The notes below the pieces were generated by a model. It was not told the origin of the DNA. It saw only the letters and a program-made list of their open reading frames with translations, and did no database searches. Of a stretch of 64,000 bases of DNA, positions 5,670 to 59,094 are shown in pieces. The stretch lies in assembly GCA_964188305.1 (NCBI GenBank), contig OZ076900.1; one strand, 5' to 3'. The translations under genes and the position numbers were made by a program. The DNA comes from Podarcis bocagei. Its lineage: Eukaryota. Every line of letters starts with the position of its first letter. Positions within the stretch are counted from its first letter, which is position 1.

Positions 5670-6215
5670 ACCAGACCAACCTCTACTCATCTACTCTGAC
5701 TGGCAGCAGTGCTCCAGACTTCCAAGTCATTTGACAAAATTCTTTTAACTGGAGCTACTAGGGATTGATTCTGGGATCTTTGGAGTGGGGCACGCGGGTG
5801 GCGCTGTGGGTAAAACCTCAGCGCCTAGGACTTGCCGATCGCATGGTCGGCGGTTTGAATCCCCACGGCGGGGTGCGCTCCTGTTGCTCAGTCCCAGCGC
5901 CTGCCAACCTAGCAGTTCGAAAGCACCCCCGGGTGCAAGTAGATAAATAGGGACCGCTTAACAGCGGGAAGGTAAACGGCATTTCCGTGTGCGGCTCTGG
6001 CTTGCCAGAGCAGCTTCGTCACGCTGGCCACGTGACCCGGAAGTGTCTGCGGACAGCGCTGGCTCCCGGCCTATAGAGTGAGATGAGCACACAACCCTAG
6101 AGTCTGTCAAGACTGGCCCGTACGGGCAGGGGTACCTTTACCTTACTAGGGATTGATTCTGGGATCTTTTTTCTGCAAAGCACATGCCCTTGCACTGAGC
6201 TTTATCCCTTCCCTT
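5670..6215 (-). mobile_element. Squam3-like tRNA-derived SINE interrupted by a Sauria SINE
   Basis: ctactctgactggcagcag...ggagctactagggattgattctgggat[insert]..tgcaaagcacatgcccttgcactgagct; a reverse-complemented tRNA-like head lies at the right end. Confidence 0.65.
5787..6143 (+). mobile_element. Sauria SINE, full length
   Basis: Head ggggcacgcgggtggcgctgtggg, B-box-like ggtttgaatccc, tail tacctttacctt. A 26-bp TSD tactagggattgattctgggatcttt is present at 5756-5781 and 6144-6169. Confidence 0.95.
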
Positions 6216-10961: not shown

Positions 10962-11002
10962 TAAGTGCAGTTGTTAGTATAACAAAGGAATTGGCTTTGT
11001 GA

Positions 11003-11351
11003 AGGTAAAGGGACCCCTGACCGTTAGGTCCAGTCATGGACGACTCTGGGGTTTCGGCGCTCATCTCGCTTTACTGGCCAAGGGAGCCGCTGTACAGCTT
11101 CCGGGTCATGTGGCCAGCATGACTAAGCCGCTTCTGGTGAACCAAAGAAGCACATGGAAATGCCGTTTACCTTCCTGCTGGTGCGGTACCTATTTATCTA
11201 CTTGCACTTGGACGTGCTTTCGAACTGCTAGGTTGGCAGGAGCAGGGACTGAGCAATGGGAGCTCACCCCGTTGCAGGGATTCGAACCACCAACCTTCTA
11301 ATCGGCAAGCCCAAGAGGCTCAGTGGTCTATACCACAGTGCCACCCGCCTC
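11003..11351 (-). mobile_element. Sauria SINE, full length
   Basis: aggtaaagggacccctgacc...ccacagtgccacccgcctc; 11-bp TSD tggctttgtga at 10992-11002 and 11352-11362. Confidence 0.95.
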
Positions 11352-13988: not shown

Positions 13989-14325
13989 TCTACCACAGAG
14001 CCTAGGACTTGCCAATCAGAAGGTCAGTGGTTCGAATCCCCACAACGGGGTGAGCTCCCGTTGCTCAGTCCCAGCTCCTGCCAACCTAGCAGTTCGAAAG
14101 CACGTCCAAGTGCAAGTAGATAAATAGGTACCACTCCGGCAAGAAGGTAAACGGCGTTTCCGTACACTGCTCTGGTTCGCCAGAAGCGGCTTAGTCATGC
14201 TGGCCACGTGACCCGGAAGCTATACTCCAGCTCCCTCGGCCAATAAAGTGAGATGAGCGCCGCAACCCCAGAGTCGGTCACGACTGGACCTAATGGTCAG
14301 GGGTCCCTTTACCCTTAACTTTTAC
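13989..14325 (+). mobile_element. Sauria SINE, slightly 5'-truncated
   Basis: Typical body and ggggtccctttacc tail; 11-bp TSD ctaccattagc at 13978-13988 and 14326-14336. Confidence 0.95.
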
Positions 14326-18621: not shown

Positions 18622-19896
18622 AAACGTATGTGTGTTTTAAAGGAAGCATATCTATAATGTAACACTCTACAATAATAGGAAGTATTCAGTTTCTCTGTCT
18701 TCTTTTTTAAACCAATTAAAACATTTTCCACAGAAAAATAGAACTGAGCTGGGCAATTTTTTTAAAAGATCACTTGGAAGAAAGGACCAGGCTAAAAACT
18801 AACCACCACAAAATGCAAGAACCAGTTAGGCAACAGCAGGATGACTAGGAACAATCACTTGCATAATTCTAATTCTGGCAAGGTCAGTGGAGGTTGCCTT
18901 CAGCTTGGCATTACAATTTAGCTTACTCATACTGCAGGGTGGACAGGAGAAGAGCTCCCCAGGAAGAGCGGAGTTTTTGAGATAAAAAGTGTTGCAATGA
19001 AAGGGGACAAAGCAGTGATAACCCAGTGCTTGAAGAGTAAGAGCTGTGGCTAAAAGAAAACCAATTGGAGGGGGAAGTTCTTGTCATAGAATGAGATTGC
19101 TGTCACCTTGAAAATGAGCACCCACATGTGAGGAGAGAACAGTATATTGACTTCAGCCAACCTGGCAGATGTCATTGGAGCAGCCACAACAGAGCAGAGA
19201 AGAATGAAACCTAAGATGAGATTATTTTCAGTGATCTTTGTGGTTCTTTGGCTAAACTGGTCAGGTCACGGTGCAAATGATGGTGGCAGTTTTAGGGACT
19301 GGCTCATTTAAAGATGCTTCTGCAGTTGCAGTTCCTTTATATGGCTATTAAGAATAAGACTTGGCAGGAGGCCAGGTTGCAATTAGAGCAGTACCAGTTT
19401 TGACAAGTGCAATTTCTCAGTCATTTCACTGACCTTGAAACCGGTTGTTTAGTTTCAAGTGTATATCAGTTGTATCCCATAGGAGAGGTGAAACTCTGTT
19501 GGTGGGAAAAGTGGCTGCCATTTTGTTTTCCTCAGAGATTTCTGTTCTGAAGTGCTTTTTGAGTTTTGGGAAATGGCTAAGACAAGAGTGGAGAACTGTT
19601 TAAAAGTTCAGAAATAAGCAGGCCTTAAAAACCAGAGGAAAAAAAGGGGGTGCATGTTGCTTAAAATAAGTTGAGGTGGGAATTCTCTCACTCTCTTTTT
19701 TATTATCATCACACATTAATGACGTAATCTTTATTATCATCACACATTAATGACGTAAAACTCAACAAATATTACACAATACACAGTACATACATTTCAT
19801 ACAATACCTATCCTCGTACCTTTACACTGGACATCACATCACACATATTTGACTTCCCACTTTCCTCTTAATGCTACGTTATCAATCTTAACTCAA

Positions 19897-20497
19897 TGTG
19901 CTGGTCCTGGGGGCTAACTGAGAGGCGAGGTCCGAGTCCAGTCCGAGGTCGATGGTGCGGTATGGAGGCTGTCCATCAAAGCTGTAGCTGGGTCCAAGGC
20001 GGGGAGTCAGGTGGGGTCAGGCAGAAGAGCAGAACAGGGTGCAGGCAGGAACATGCTAGCAACACCGTTGCTCCCGCAACCCGGGACTGGGGCTGCCTGG
20101 CTTTTATCTGCCCCGAGGCATAGGGCGGCCCCGGTCCACAGGTGACTCGCCTCTCCTGGTCTGGAGGCGAGCACTCCTCCTGCAGGAACTTAGTTGCCTC
20201 CGCCTCTCTGCCCTGAGCTTCTGCAGCTCAGGAGAGGCTGGAGTGTTACCGGACCCAGAGGCAACCTCCTCTTTCCCTGACGGGGCTGAGAGTGGAGCAC
20301 CTGCAGGCAATGGGTCCTCCATCACCTCAGGGGCCAGAGCAGACTCAGCTGGTGCCTCCACCTGAGGATCCAGCACAGGTGAGGACCCTTCAGGCTCAGG
20401 CCCCAGCCCCAGCTCAGCTGGTTCTGGAGGCGGGGAATCCTGTGCAGGCTGGGATTCCTCAGGTTCAACCTCTGAGTCCGAATCTCAGGCCATCACA
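19897..20497 (-). mobile_element. Solo LTR (probably Gypsy), 601 bp
   Basis: TG...CA ends with imperfect inverted termini tgtgctggtc / ggccatcaca; 5-bp TSD ctcaa at 19892-19896 and 20498-20502; GC-rich; TATA-like GATAAAAG on the minus strand at 20101-20108. Confidence 0.85.
20104..20493 (-). pseudogene. LTR U3-internal ORF (~129 codons, acidic/Pro-rich then basic, RRSARL motif) with one stop at codon 3
   Basis: Manual in-frame extension of the track ORF 20104-20376 gives ATG GCC TGA then DSDSEVEPEESQPAQDSPPPEPAELGLGPEPEGSSPVLDPQ...RRSARLQTRRG...RGR*. Confidence 0.45.
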
Positions 20498-21869
20498 CTC
20501 AATACGCATGTTGCAGTGATTCTTCCACATTTCCTTTTGTTTGTCTATTCATATTTCACTGTATCTTCCCTCTATTTACAAGATTTAGTCTGAATCTGCT
20601 AGGAGATTTGAGTTGTCCATATAGCTTTTTAAAATATTCTTTAAAGATTAACCATTCTTTATTAACTTTTTGAACAATGTTTCCTCTTACTCTCCCTGTT
20701 AGTTTTGCAAGATGTAAATATTCAATCATTTTAGCTAACCAGTCAGATTTGGTGTGGATTATGTTGCTTTTCCAATTTTTTGCTATGAGAATTCTTGCCG
20801 CTGTGGTGGCATACATAAAGAATGGTCTACATGTTTTCTTGATTTCCAAGGACATGATACCAAGCAGGAATGCTTCCAGTTTTGTTTTGTTTTTGAAAGG
20901 GAATTTAAACATTTTTTTCCAGTTTGTTATAGATGATATCCCAGAACTTTTAGTTTTTTGCACTCCCATCACATATGTATGAAGGTCCCTTTCCCCTCTT
21001 TGCACCTCCAACATATGTCTGTACTGTTCTTGTACATTTTAGCCAATTTGGCCGGAGTTAAATACCATCCATATTGCATCTTCAATATGTTTTCCCTAAG
21101 ATTGTAACAGGCAGTGAATTTGATGTCGCTTTTCCATAACCTTTCCCATTCACTCATAAGCATGTTATGATCAAGGTCCTAGGCCCAGTGTATCATGGCT
21201 GCTTTTAGTTCCTTCTCCTTTACTTCCCTTTCGAGAAGAAGATTATACATTTTTTAATATAAATTTTCCTTTGGTCTGTATTAATTTTTTTTCTAATTTC
21301 AGAATTTCTTTTGCAAATCCTTTTTGTTTGTCTAATCTCAATCTTCTGTTAATTTGAAAATATTGAAGCCAATTGTTCAAATATGATAGTATTTCGTCAA
21401 ATTATTTTATCTTTAATTTGTTATTTTCCTCTTTTAATATCATTTTGTATGTAGGCCATTTTTCTTGCATATTTTTCTTTTTCACTGCCATAGCTTTTGT
21501 AGGCGAGGTCCACCAGGGGGTTTTCGGTTCCAATATATCTCTGTATTTTCTTATTATATGGTCCAAAAAACCCCTGTGGACCTTCACTTTATCGTAAATT
21601 AGATATGTGTGCCATCCAAAGCGGGTGCCATAGCCTTCGATATCTAATAGATCCGTATCTCTCCCTCTCTGTCATTACCACATGTATATGAGGTGGTATC
21701 TGTGTTGATCCTCTCATGCATGCAATTCATCTCATGACGTTGCAGTCATCAAGTGATGATTTCACATGTGTGAAGCACGCTTGAATCTCTTGCAAGTGAA
21801 TGAATATACGACATTGGTAAATGAACAGCGCTTTACCACGCAAAGACAGATCTTAGGGAAATGTTTTCT

Positions 21870-39507: not shown

Positions 39508-39852
39508 AAAAGATAAAGGAGCCCCTGACCATTAGGTCCAGTCGTGACTGACTCTGGGGTTGTGGCGCTCATCTTGCTTTATTGGCCGAGGGAGCCGGCG
39601 TACAGCTTCCGGGTCATGTGGCCAGCATGACTAAGCCGCTTCTGGCGAACCAGAGCAGCACACGGAAACGCCGTTTAACTTTCTGCCAGAGCGGAACCTA
39701 TTTATCTACTTGCACTTTGATGTGCTTTCGAACTGCTAGGTTGGCAGGAGCAGGGACCGAGCAACGGGAGCTCACCCCATCGCGGGGATTCGAACCGCCA
39801 ACCTTCTGGCAAGTCCTAGGCTCTGTGATTAACCCACAGCACCACCCACATC
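39508..39852 (-). mobile_element. Sauria SINE, full length
   Basis: gcccctgaccattaggtccagtc...aacccacagcaccacccacatcc; no clear long TSD. Confidence 0.95.
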
Positions 39853-44197: not shown

Positions 44198-44497
44198 AAA
44201 AGGTAAAGGGACCCCTGACCATTAGGTCCAGTCGCGGATGACTCTGAGGTTGCGGCGCCAACCTAGCAGTTCGAAAGCACATCAAAGTGCAAGTAGATAA
44301 ATAGGTACCACTCCAGCGGGAAGGTAAATGGCGTTTCTGTGCACTGCTCTGCTTCTCCAGAAGCGGCTTAGTCATGCTGGCCACCTGACCTGGAAGCTGT
44401 ACGCCAGCTCCCTCGGCCAATAAAGCGAGATGAGCGCCTCAACCCCAGAGCCCGTCACAACTGGACCTAATGGTCAGGGGTCCCTTTACCTTTACCT
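44198..44497. mobile_element. Head-to-head Sauria SINE fusion: minus-strand 3' end (44198-44258) joined to a plus-strand 5'-truncated copy (44257-44497)
   Basis: Begins aaaaggtaaagggacccctgacc and ends ggtcaggggtccctttacctttacc; the orientation switches at gcggc|gc|caacctag. Confidence 0.9.
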
Positions 44498-46310: not shown

Positions 46311-46974
46311 CCGGAGTCTTCAGGTTCCTTTCGCTGAAGCCAGGAAAGTCCTGGCTTCAGCAAAAGGAACCCGAAGCCTGAAGAGCGCAGTGGGAACTTG
46401 TGCTGCGCTCCAAAGGCTTCAGGGATCTTTGACGTTGGCGGTGAGGGAAAGCAGTGCTTCCCCCCACTGCCAGCCCCACAAGCTTGGGGGGCAGCAGGAA
46501 GGCTGTGCGCAGCCTTTCCGCTGTTCCCCGACCTGCTCTTTGGGGCTGGCAGTGGGGGAAAGCAGTGCTTCCCCCCACCAGCCCCAAAGCGCAGGTTGAA
46601 AGGAACCCGAAGCCTCCGGAGCCTAGTGGGAACGCCTACTGTGCTCCTGAGGCTTCGGGTTGCCTTCACTGAAGCCTGGAGAGAGAGAGGGGTCAGTGCG
46701 CAGCGACCCCTCTTGCTCTCCAGGCTTCCAAGGTAGCTGCCTGAAGCCTCCAGAATGCAGCTGGAACTTCCGCTGTGCTCCGGAGGCTTCGGGTGAACGC
46801 ACCTTGAACGCACAGAACACACCTTGTTTTAGAGGGGGAGAACAAGAAAAAAAAATTCTCCCTCTCTCTACACAGTGCCCCTTCAGCAAAGCGGGAGGAG
46901 AAATGGAAGGGCCTCCCCCTCTAAAACAAGGTGCGTCCTATGGTCGGGTGCATCCTATAGAGCGCAAAATACGA
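46311..46974. mobile_element. Tc2-like non-autonomous element lacking most of its left TIR
   Basis: The right end gtgcgtcctatggtcgggtgcatcctatagagcgcaaaatacga|TA resembles the 10293-10961 terminus; GC-rich internal repeats (aagcagtgcttccccc, gaagcct). Confidence 0.75.
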
Positions 46975-54928: not shown

Positions 54929-55308
54929 GGGGACATGGGTAGCGCTGTGGTCTAAACCACTGAGCATCTTGGGCTTGCCGATCGGAAAGTTGGCAGTTCA
55001 AATCTGCAGAATGGCGTGAGCTCCTGTTGCTCTGTCCCAACTTCTGTCAACCCAGCAGCTTGAAAACACACCAGTGCAAGTAGATAAATAGGTACCACTG
55101 CAGCGGGAAGGTAAATGGTGTTTCCATGCACTCTGGCACTCGTCACTGTCCTCCGCGTGCCAGGTTAGTTATGCTAACCACATGACCCGGAAAGCTGTCC
55201 GCAGACAAATGCTGGCTCCCTTGGCCTGAAAAGTGAGATGAGCACCACACCCCATAGTCACCTTTGATGGGACTTAACTGTCCAGGGGTCCTTTACCTTA
55301 CCTTTACC
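54929..55308 (+). mobile_element. Sauria SINE, full length, older subfamily
   Basis: ggggacatgggtagcgctgtgg..tail cctttaccttacctttacc; 15-bp TSD tttattatgaatgat at 54903-54917 and 55309-55323. Confidence 0.95.
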
Positions 55309-57360
55309 TTTATTATGAATGATTGGTGGATAGTTTATTTTATTGTGTATTTTTAAATAAGATATATTCTCACTAGCTAAATATATATTATTTTAATTTT
55401 GTTAAGTTTTGTGTCTCTTAGCAAATTTTGTAAACTCTTTTGACATTGTGAGGCATCTTGAATATGACTTCCTATGGAAAGGTGGCCCACAAATCAATCA
55501 CGATAATTACACAGGATCAAATCAAGTAGCTGTGCTAGCTGGGAGCTAATGTCAAATCCTAGCTTTTTAGCAAATGTGCACATTTAATTGGCACATGTAC
55601 ATGCTTAATTTAATGTGTCCATGCTAGTTTCATTCATATACCTTACATTTGTAGGTGTTCAAATATATTTGTAGAGGCACACCTTTAAAAATGTAACATG
55701 CTTTTAAGAACCAACAAAGGCAATCCTGTGGCAAGAAGTGTTAGAATTAGCAGCTTTAGGTTGAAGTGGCTCTCTGGCTCAGCTGGCTGCTTCCTGGATC
55801 AGCTAGGCTCAGCCAGGGTTATGTCCCCACTCATGGCTCAGCTGAAGATATGCCAGCATAATTTGAACATCCCGGTTTAGCTGGTTGAGCCTAGGACAGT
55901 GCAAATCTGCCCCCTCCCCCACAAAGGGGTGCTCCGGGGGCATGGGGTGTGTGCGAGCAAAGAAAGAAAGGGAACTTAGGCTGGATCCCCAACCCATTGA
56001 GCCTGATCATGTGACCAGGCTGCCCGGCATATAACGCTATTTTAAAAAGTTTGCTTTCCCTCTGCCAGACTTAGGCAGAGTGGCAGCAGCTGTCTCACTA
56101 CTGAACAGGTTTTGGATGTGGTGTAAATTTACAACTGCTTAACTTAAACCAGCTTCTGTTACACCAGCTCCTTCTGCAAAGAATTGCTCCCTTGGCCTCT
56201 CAAAAATGTTACAAATGAATGCAAACCCTTTGGGGACTGTGTCTGCCGAAATACTGATTACAATGGGTATTTACTTTTCGTGCTAGGTAAAGAGGAGCAA
56301 GTCATTGAAAAATCATGCATAGCTTTGAGTTTTTTCCCCTCCCTTTCAGTTCCGACAACACAAATCCTGCTAAGCTTTAGGATCTGTTGTTATACCATAT
56401 GTGGGTTTCTCAAACATAACCTGCCAACCCTAGAACGAATATGTTGTGTTGCTAAAGGTTGAGTCTTCCTTTGATTATTTTAATGAGCAAACAGAGGATG
56501 AGAAAACATGCACAGATGTGATTGATCTTTGCAGAACCCTATGAGAATATCCATATAAGCTTGCTGTTTTTGTCTCTTCACACCATCATGGGATGGGCTT
56601 GGCCAGCAAAATAACCTTATTACTTTTAGTGAAGTTTAGGAAAATAGAAGTGTATAGAAAACATCACAGTAATAAAACTTTAAAAGGAAGCCCCTCAAGA
56701 ACCAAAACAAATGTCCTTGTGTTTATGCATAAAGGTGCTTGGTGGGAACAGAAGATGAGATCATACTTATCTTTTTACAGGGCAAAGAAATAACACAATT
56801 GAAGTGTGAGATGGATAGAAAACAACATTAGAAAGTTGTTGAATCAGAATCTCAAGTCCAAAAGTGACTCCAGGAATGATGCCACCTGGCTTGGTAGGTG
56901 AAAGGTATCCCGTTTCCAAAGGTGGTTGAGCTTATCTGAGGAAGTATCATGTTTCTGGAGGGGTAGCCGAAGGGCTTAGCTTTCAGACTTCATTTCCTTC
57001 AGGCATGGAGAAAGAGAGCTTTTGATCTCACTTAAAAAGAAGAGAACTTAAGAACTTCTGGCAAAGGATGAAGTTGTACAGTTCTGAAAGAGGGCAACAA
57101 AGCTTGCAAATGCATCTTGCAGGTTAGCCACATGATGGATTCTATTTTCTGTTGTTTATGGTGTGTTCCTCCTCCACACTCCCAGGAAAAAAGTTGTGAG
57201 ATCTGTATGCTTGGTAATATTGAAGTTCTCCAGAATGGTAGAGAAAATGGGACAATTCTGAAAGGAAGTTACTGACAGATTATTTGAAATAAGCATTTTA
57301 CAGCACAGCCTGTAGACATGTTGACTCAAAAGTAAGTCCAATTGGGTGCAATGGGGATCA

Positions 57361-57629
57361 CTCCTGCCAACCTAGCAGTTTGAAAGCACGTCAGTGCAAG
57401 TAGATAAATAGGTACCTCTGTGGTGGGAAGGTAAATGGTGTTTCCGTGAGCTCTGGCTTCTGTCACGGTGTCACGTTGCACCAGAAGCGGTTTAGTCATG
57501 CTGGCCACATGACCCAGAAAGCTGTCTGTGGACAAACGCTGGCTCCCTCAGCCAGAAAGCAAGATGAGCGCTGCAACCCCATAGTCACCTTTGACTGGAC
57601 TTAACCATCCAGGGGTCCTTTACTTTTTT
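57361..57629 (+). mobile_element. Sauria SINE, 5'-truncated, inserted into a short palindromic repeat
   Basis: ctcctgccaacctagc..ggggtcctttac, with a short actcc duplication. The host reads ctcaaaagtaagtcc..aatggg..actcc|cag..tagatttgcag. Confidence 0.9.
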
Positions 57630-59094
57630 ACTCCCAGAAAACTGGGTTTAGATTTGCAGTCACAGGTTTTTAAATGTATTACTAGGGCCTACCCCCCACT
57701 AGTATTGCTTGTTGACTCCACCTACCACTTGCTTGCTAAACCCCTACCTGCTATCCCAACAACCCCACCCTTTACACCTTGCCCTGACATCCCCCAGCTC
57801 CTCCTACCCCCAGCCAGTCCCCATAGCTCCTTCCACTTCCCTTCTGCACCCAACAATCACCTGATGCCATAGTGACATCAGGTAATACTTCCCTTTGGAA
57901 CCCCTTTTGTTGGGACTTCAAAGGTCCTGTCAGCTTATTTCTGGGGTTCATTTACTGATCTAGGGGGCTGGCTAGGCCAGAGTGGTATGCAACATAGGTT
58001 TCAATCCTACATGCACTTACTTGGGAGTAAGTATTATTGAACTCAGTGGGATGTATTTTTGACTAGGAATGCATGGGTTTCTTACAGGTGCTTAAGTAAA
58101 GACCGAACTATTATGGTGCAAACTTGAGATGCATATGGCTCAGTTGTCTAAAGTACCCTGAAATGCACTGGAAATTCATTTTGGTACCTGTTACTTTGGC
58201 TTCTATTCTGAATCCACATGTAATTGTTTTTCAATGAATAATTAATTAGTATGCAGCAGACAGCTTCTTATTGGTTGAGAGGAAGCAAAGATGTCACAGT
58301 GACATTAATGCTAGTTGACTCGGATTTAACACCTTTTTCTAATGATGAAGTGTGGATTTGTTATTATTATTATTTTAGAAGAGTAGCTACCTGAGTCATT
58401 TTGCTTGGCAATTGCAGCTATTAAGTTGTCTAGGCTTGTTATGAGAGAGGTGTGTTGTTCAGCTAAATTGTTTTCCCCAGGATATGACTAGTGTTGATGC
58501 TTTTCATGAACTGGTATCCTTTTTATCACATGGGAGCTGTACAGCTGGGTCCAGTCAAGTGTCCACATAAGTGTAGCATCTTTTATATTGACAGTGACCA
58601 ACCAGATGCTCTTGAGAAACTCTCTATATGATGCATTCCATATTATTAATCTTCACACCTGAAGGTCAACAGGCATTCATGGGAAGAAGAAATATCGCAA
58701 CAAACCTAAATACTGTAAATATTTAAGCAGAAAATGGCAGATGGCTCTAAAAATGAGCAAAATATTTAGGTATAGTATGTCCTAGTCTCATTCACATGCA
58801 CAAACATTCACACACACATGCACAAACACACCATTGTTATCTGGTTGACTCCGAACGCCAGAAAACTCCAGAAATACCTTCATTTTGGGGCTAGAAATGG
58901 TAACAGCTGACTAATTTTATATCACATTGGATAGAGACTTTAAATGGGGGGGGGGTCCTGATCCCCTTGTTGTGAGATACCATACCTGTGAGGATAACTT
59001 GCTCATCCTGTACTTTCCTGCTGATTGGTCCTCATTTGAAGACTGCCACCTTCATTGAGATAAAGAGCTACAACTCTTAGTTACAACACATGAT

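Follow-up and report, generated by a model that had tools for sequence, protein, structure and literature searches.

LTR retrotransposons with an ORF that runs into the LTR are known from plants. In group A of the CRM elements, centromeric chromoviruses of plants, the ORF reaches into the 3' LTR and encodes a putative targeting (CR) motif there (PMC3059260). Among the chromodomain elements of Beta vulgaris, the gag-pol ORF of Bingo1-4 and Bingo7 extends into the 3' LTR (PMC3605345). A short motif in a C-terminal tail is also found on the integrase of Ty1, where it directs integration (PMC7459421). Independently of retrotransposons, several proteins hold on to the nucleosome through an ordered arginine motif. 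Specifically, the HMGN core reads RRSARLSA, and HMGN-like motifs are described in Dsup (RRSSRLTS; PMC12487698) and in yeast Dot5 (RRSARIAT; PMC13347269). HMGN2 RRSAR and Dsup RRSSR dock on the acidic patch, Dsup R363, R364, S365, and R367 contacting H2A E56/E61/E64/D90/E92 and H2B Q47/E113 (PMC12487698), and Dot5 binds nucleosomes with its three arginines being required (PMC13347269). Viral acidic-patch tethers include foamy virus Gag, KSHV LANA, and CMV IE1, and the PFV intasome, according to the same review, uses no arginine anchor on the patch (PMC9040877).

Here, we describe a retrotransposon family of the lizard Podarcis bocagei whose ORF, like that of CRM group A, continues past the 3' LTR boundary, with a conserved motif in the LTR-encoded part. 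In CRM group A, the CR motif replaces the chromodomain (PMC3059260), whereas the lizard element keeps its chromodomain with the LTR tail behind it and carries a motif that matches a structurally solved acidic-patch binder. The lizard element belongs to a vertebrate clade, unlike the plant CRM elements, and the comparison between them covers the ORF layout. The Bingo elements differ in being plant group II chromodomain elements, and the accessible text on them names no motif or function for the extension (PMC3605345). Like HMGN, the lizard tail has an exact RRSARL, with Ala at position 8 in most copies and predicted contacts to H2A E61/E64 and H2B Q47; unlike in HMGN, which is a small stand-alone protein, the motif sits near the end of a retrotransposon polyprotein, an acidic region precedes it, and there is no match to HMG14/17 or any other Pfam family. 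As with foamy virus Gag, LANA, and IE1, a selfish element is predicted here to use an arginine anchor that holds its genome or integration complex on nucleosomes; the foamy virus anchor sits on Gag, whereas the lizard anchor would be on integrase and LTR-encoded. Ty1, in contrast to the lizard element, is a Copia element that binds AC40 through a targeting domain that is not LTR-encoded (PMC7459421). In the open-access literature, no paper turned up that describes an HMGN-like motif for the integrase or the LTR of any retrotransposon, and this variant is apparently undescribed.

Results

The window, i.e., the whole 64,000-nt stretch of DNA that was analyzed, contains a solo LTR of 601 bp (Table 1). 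The initial annotation had recognized the element and its minus-strand orientation; its range of 19892..20502 takes in both TSDs, and the LTR proper is 19897-20497. The surrounding LINE, presumably the C-terminal part of an L1/Tx1-like ORF2, gave no Pfam match. A genome search with the solo LTR returned 2,415 candidates, of which 40 were scored, and copies are scattered over all large contigs (these contigs carry no centromere annotation). LTRs of the W type also flank a decayed gag-pol element (locus L092). The copy in the window is an ordinary dead solo LTR. Two identical matches 9 kb apart on contig C11 were considered as an LTR pair and rejected, as they share both flanks and therefore represent a segmental duplication. 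A ~9-kb segmental or tandem repeat accounts for at least three occurrences of one solo LTR whose flanks are identical (C11:11226011-11235687; C38; L030, L031, L040).

Table 1. Features at the solo LTR and its surroundings, in window positions
Feature	Position	Strand	Remarks
Solo LTR, chromovirus-type Ty3/Gypsy, older subfamily "W"	19897..20497	minus	TGTG...CACA ends, 5-bp TSD
TSD, 5' copy, TTGAG	20498..20502	minus	
TSD, 3' copy, TTGAG	19892..19896	minus	
U3 reading frame, C-terminal Gag-Pol/integrase tail	20104..20493	minus	shares the integrase/chromodomain frame of full-length elements
Acidic Pro-rich spacer, codons 1-85	20239..20493	minus	by composition; length differs by in-frame indels
SPxLQxLRAERRRxL segment	20191..20235	minus	most conserved part of the tail across subfamilies
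RRSARL, HMGN-like motif	20164..20181	minus	RRSARLxA[KR] in most family copies
TATA-like box GATAAAAG	20101..20108	minus	overlaps the stop in subfamily W; putative promoter role
Decayed LINE hosting the LTR insertion	20503..21700 (outer bound approximate)	minus	broken frames, CWRC motif

Re-reading the sequence confirmed the reading frame that had been reported in U3, together with the position of RRSARL. The frame starts with an ATG at LTR nt 5 (20493) and runs for 130 codons to a TAA at 20106-20104 inside GATAAAAG, with a single internal stop at codon 3 (20485-20487). The earlier view that this copy is dead holds. The acidic, Pro-rich N-terminal part and Arg-rich C-terminal part were likewise recovered: codons 1-85, likely a disordered spacer, contain 19 D/E, 17 P, and 1 K/R, and the last 45 codons contain 14 K/R. 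The SPxLQxLRAERRRxL segment is likely a basic helix. Positions 7-8 after RRSARL read KA or QA in most copies and QT in the window copy. When the bases of U3 were shuffled, the 126-codon stretch stayed open in 361 of 20,000 cases, and with the whole LTR shuffled 20,000 times, RRSARL arose in 29 trials, all frames counted. With the tail as query, Pfam returned 0 families at E 10, and a PDB sequence search found no match. The ESM Atlas gave chromodomain clusters alone, at 0.86 or lower, which serve as leads only.

The initial annotation had proposed checking whether the frame is intact across the family. Among 37 distinct close copies (92-94% identical), 25 keep it open over the whole length, from the first codon to the shared stop; another 9 carry a frameshift or read through, and internal stops occur in 3. 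The ATG is kept in 35 of the 37, where G at -3 and +4 makes for a good Kozak context. RRSARLQAR is intact in 16 of the 28 in-frame close copies, with losses mostly at the CpG-bearing fifth codon. The sister subfamilies terminate the frame a few codons upstream of the GATAAA box, which is present in 8/8 aligned LTR representatives.

A search of the genome for a PPT joined to an LTR start gave 345 overlapping matches (0 for the control pattern), and 20 PPT-joined loci were fetched for full-length analysis. These are mostly elements of 5.6-5.8 kb with matching TSDs, a length that leaves no space for env. Their equal-length LTR pairs are 98.5-100% identical; therefore, the family moved recently. 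At 4 of the 20 loci, a single 1,564-codon frame ends ...RRSARLKARVGGAPGGRDRP in the 3' LTR. In the encoded protein, Pfam recognizes gag, zinc knuckle, protease, RT, RNase H, integrase, SH3_Tf2-1, and Chromo (1371-1418), and no domain in the tail. The chromodomain (PF00385, E 8e-15; HP1/CBX5 alignment, E 8e-15) keeps the group I aromatic cage residues Y/W/Y. Behind it, the frame crosses the PPT, continues for ~115 codons in the 3' LTR, and ends soon after RRSARL; this continuation is in the same frame as the U3 ORF of the window, and one decayed full-length element of the window's own subfamily shows the same integrase-LTR junction. Judged from its sequences, with a gag-PR-RT-RH-INT order, a chromodomain at the integrase C-terminus, TG..CA LTRs, a PPT, and a short TSD, the family is a lacertid chromovirus (Sushi-like Ty3/Gypsy).

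Since the gag-pol frame is continuous via the PPT into U3, the U3 ORF is, as read from these elements, the C-terminal tail of Gag-Pol and no separate U3 gene. U3-encoded accessory genes such as MMTV sag and nef have their own start codon and their own transcript, separate from pol. In contrast, the lizard U3 frame is continuous with pol, and its ATG belongs to the LTR terminus and is not conserved in relatives, which read V-T or V-V in its place. In addition, U3 lies upstream of the LTR's own TATA-like box. Of the two options raised in the initial annotation, a tail of pol/integrase thus stands, and a separate accessory gene or transactivator of the sag/nef kind is not supported. Of 51 chromodomain-LTR junctions, 22 break the frame, in nearly every case by a length change in the G runs just before or in the PPT, and among 11 elements compared, the eight-G run at the junction is the sole homopolymer with indels; slippage, assembly error, or dispensability of the tail may be responsible. 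The description of the ORF as unannotated is partly right: Podarcis and Anolis Gypsy models in UniRef already include the tail, without comment on it, as in a Podarcis muralis protein that is 96% identical over chromodomain and tail.

Two further observations concern the chromoviruses of this genome. At the gag/pol boundary, all of L071-L090 and L092 have a slippery heptamer, GGGAAAC or GGAAAAC, which we take to be PEG10-like. Of 20 copies, 8 have a stop at the end of gag with pol in the -1 frame, and the other 12, which are mostly the youngest, read through from gag to pol as a single frame; loss of programmed frameshifting may be a recent event in this family. A second chromovirus family (L196 ~1083-1500, L206, L208-L217) has an LTR of ~415 bp with an acidic U3 frame ending SAKERRVLKRR and no RRSxRL; at both junctions that were read, G runs put this frame out of register with the chromodomain. 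A search for further tail-bearing families by PPT pattern (83 matches versus 257 for the control) yielded one additional chromodomain family only, and the Anolis tail as query found no real match in this genome.

To quantify selection on the tail, we started from 123 LTR copies and kept the 92 with an open frame, 91 of which fall in four subfamilies. Between subfamilies, dN/dS of the tail is 0.35-0.61 at kappa 3 (5/6 bootstrap intervals exclude 1) and 0.39-0.67 at kappa 5.2 (3/6 intervals include 1), where the intervals come from a codon bootstrap and the 5' and 3' LTRs of one element and the copy pairs are not independent. The +1 and +2 frames give 1.4-5.0 (mostly >1.2). Differences between subfamilies are in excess at third codon positions (e.g., 20/21/40, or 40/81 differences; p ~0.002), and two subfamily-level indels within the frame measure 18 and 30 nt, while 3' of the GATAAA box many indels are not multiples of three. 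Both codon-level constraint and indels in multiples of three had been named in the initial annotation as marks of a coding U3. In one comparison of the helix-plus-motif stretch, dS is 0.49 versus a dN of 0.09. Within the window's subfamily, the tail dN/dS of 0.86-0.96 is as expected for decay after insertion, and the codon positions differ by 5/9/9 (p 0.35). By these measures, purifying selection acted on the U3 frame as the subfamilies diverged, and solo copies undergo neutral decay. Constraint on the integrase is far tighter (dN/dS 0.10-0.15), and the weaker constraint on the tail fits a disordered spacer with a short motif.

To find relatives without bias from the tail, the homolog search used the integrase and chromodomain as query and left the tail out. 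The best 120 of 2,107 and the best 150 of 21,918 matches comprise 267 distinct proteins (226,505 residues), 255 with a recognizable chromodomain and 31 with a PPT-to-LTR read-through signature; some homologs end upstream of the LTR. RRS.R[LI] occurs five times in the 267 proteins, four of them in LTR tails (4/31): Podarcis P0001 (the query family), Anolis P0006 and P0007, and protein P0225. In shuffled tails, one match appeared in 59/5000 cases and two in 0/5000. Among the at least 30 listed members of the two Anolis clusters (460 in all), 17 have both chromodomain and tail, reading RRSARI (12), RRSLRI (4), or RSSARI (1) with varying spacer lengths, so that RRS[AL]RI is present in 16/17 and position 4 alone varies among these. 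The Podarcis and Anolis tails give no significant alignment, their score being reached by 85/1000 shuffles. P0225, which groups with amphibian-type elements, has RRSARIAAR 8 residues after the LTR start. For the Anolis and P0225 tails, the placement in the LTR follows from the protein register and not from DNA.

Retention of the motif in related families, which the initial annotation had named as a test, is seen as RRSARL-like motifs in the Anolis clusters and P0225 and fails in four related acidic-plus-basic LTR tails (Rhineura P0200, Vipera P0212, P0013, and the second family in this genome). Squamate relatives share an acidic spacer with a basic end that finishes KRGRP, RRRRQ, RRRWDRRR, or KERRVLKRR. 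Inner squamate nodes have 46-58% support, and another tree joins Podarcis and Anolis with P0013; as far as these sequences go, the motif may have a single origin with losses or have been gained repeatedly, and the trees fit both. Frog P0002 (RRSPRL) was left uncounted because the query that found it included the tail and because it is itself Arg-rich (shuffle p 0.007).

In Rhineura P0200, the acidic LTR tail ends KRGRP, presumably an AT-hook-like core, where Podarcis has RRSARL. Fish-type chromoviruses (P0273, P0311, P0312, P0316, P0319, P0323, P0261, P0266) have an AT-hook-like RPRGRPRR directly after the chromodomain. Their LTR-encoded tail is short and finishes with R-x(1,2)-S-P-x-[YF], so that a second conserved motif is encoded in an LTR. 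Public gene models such as P0148, P0149, and many of P0196-P0332 join Gypsy pol/chromodomain pieces to host genes (e.g., Anolis PCBD2 and KCNQ5 isoforms) and are probably annotation chimeras.

To assess docking on the nucleosome, we modeled the 46 C-terminal residues of a natural tail copy together with lizard H2A and H2B, in three runs and three controls. The complex scored 0.64 versus 0.02 for the best control; the mark for this score was reached by 51/78 solved and 2/108 mismatched pairs (39/65 and 2/126 for eukaryotes), in a calibration that contained no peptides. The confident interface is confined to V1533-L1541 (VAPRRSARL) on H2A E61/E64 and H2B Q47, residues that Dsup and HMGN2 also contact, with Arg5 contacting H2A E61, Ser3 contacting E61/E64, and Arg1 contacting H2B Q47. 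One of the three runs scored 0.02, contact agreement went down to 4%, and partner pLDDT went down to 39. The pass may reflect memory of solved acidic-patch peptides; therefore, the model shows likeness and not binding. The positions that make contact in Dsup, HMGN2, and Dot5 are those fixed in the retrotransposon tails, and the variable position 4 is not among the contacts named for Dsup (PMC12487698).

Discussion

Our main reading, to which we assign a probability of roughly 0.6, is that the U3 frame encodes the last ~130 codons of Gag-Pol and that its RRSARL likely tethers integrase to nucleosomes via the H2A-H2B acidic patch. In the proposed mechanism, the tail would remain on integrase after protease processing, with the acidic spacer (~90 residues) acting as a flexible leash. 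The chromodomain would read methylated H3 while motif residues Arg1, Arg2, Ser3, and Arg5 would dock on the acidic patch, giving the integration complex a two-point capture of the nucleosome, and the anchor would help fix new insertions to chromatin. As both ends of the element receive U3, each solo LTR is left with a copy of the tail that lacks a promoter and, as in the window, goes on to decay neutrally.

In the main alternative, the tail would be a real part of integrase that serves as an NLS or as a general basic end for binding DNA or partners, like the acidic-basic C-terminus of Ty1, with RRSARL interchangeable and no specific docking on the patch. We consider this unlikely. It is in line with the other endings behind a shared acidic spacer in related squamate tails and with the Ty1 targeting domain, which sits in the linker of a bipartite NLS (PMC7459421). 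However, an ordered R-R-S-x-R-[LI]-x-A with position 4 free recurs in three lineages, beyond what shuffles of the same composition give; Ser3 and Leu/Ile6 would be needless for an NLS, and the model puts exactly these motif residues on the predicted acidic-patch interface.

A highly improbable explanation is that pol enters U3 passively, that the tail has no protein function, and that conservation reflects a promoter element in the DNA, ~55 bp upstream of the TATA-like box. Among the four subfamilies, the DNA of the six motif codons hardly varies, so within this genome a DNA element is conceivable, and both the 22/51 out-of-frame junctions and the homologs that stop before the LTR accord with passive entry. 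Yet dN/dS below 1 is specific to the frame and is accompanied by third-position excess, in-frame indels, and the low dN relative to dS in the helix-plus-motif stretch, and P0225 has the motif at quite another place, 8 codons after the LTR start.

That U3 also or instead yields a free protein of ~129 residues from the ATG at LTR nt 5, via a subgenomic or host read-through transcript, is barely credible: the conserved ATG with its Kozak context, the 25/37 open copies, and host-LTR chimeric reads in related RNA runs would allow it, but the ATG lies within the terminal motif of the LTR, with V-T or V-V taking its place in relatives, solo copies decay neutrally with the fifth motif residue lost in 10/28 in-frame close copies, none of 70 candidates is a stand-alone homolog of the window frame (69-221 aa), and the reads, at low depth, showed no canonical splice joint that leads into U3. 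Raw RNA reads from a related population cover pol and LTR at a low level and mostly on one strand (149, 127, and 45 reads); these counts come from 6-12% of three runs and are too thin for mapping starts or splicing.

Returning to the integrase anchor, we are evenly divided on a broader version of it, in which the U3 of vertebrate chromoviruses would be a swappable cassette that equips integrase with chromatin-docking motifs. Lizards and at least one amphibian-type lineage would have a true HMGN mimic in this cassette, which together with the chromodomain would make a two-point reader of methyl-H3 and the acidic patch and the first integrase-borne acidic-patch anchor. If so, thousands of solo LTRs would be ready-made HMGN-like coding modules spread genome-wide. 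An HMGN-type anchor on integrase gives a concrete and cheap test of how vertebrate Gypsy elements search for and hold on to chromatin. If the anchor is real, plant CR motifs, foamy virus Gag tethers, and HMGN-like motifs would be repeated solutions to one problem. The U3 of these elements is under a dual constraint, as coding sequence and as putative promoter. For the annotation of solo LTRs, an open U3 frame represents an integrase fossil and not a new gene.

Other features of the window

A dispersed repeat of ~300 bp, probably a squamate SINE or MITE, occurs on both strands of the window (5815-6144, 11002-11315, 13992-14320, 39510-39807, 44199-44497, 54937-55299, and 57360-57632). At 46349-46794, the DNA is GC-rich, with clustered short direct and inverted repeats that include a 95-nt imperfect palindrome.
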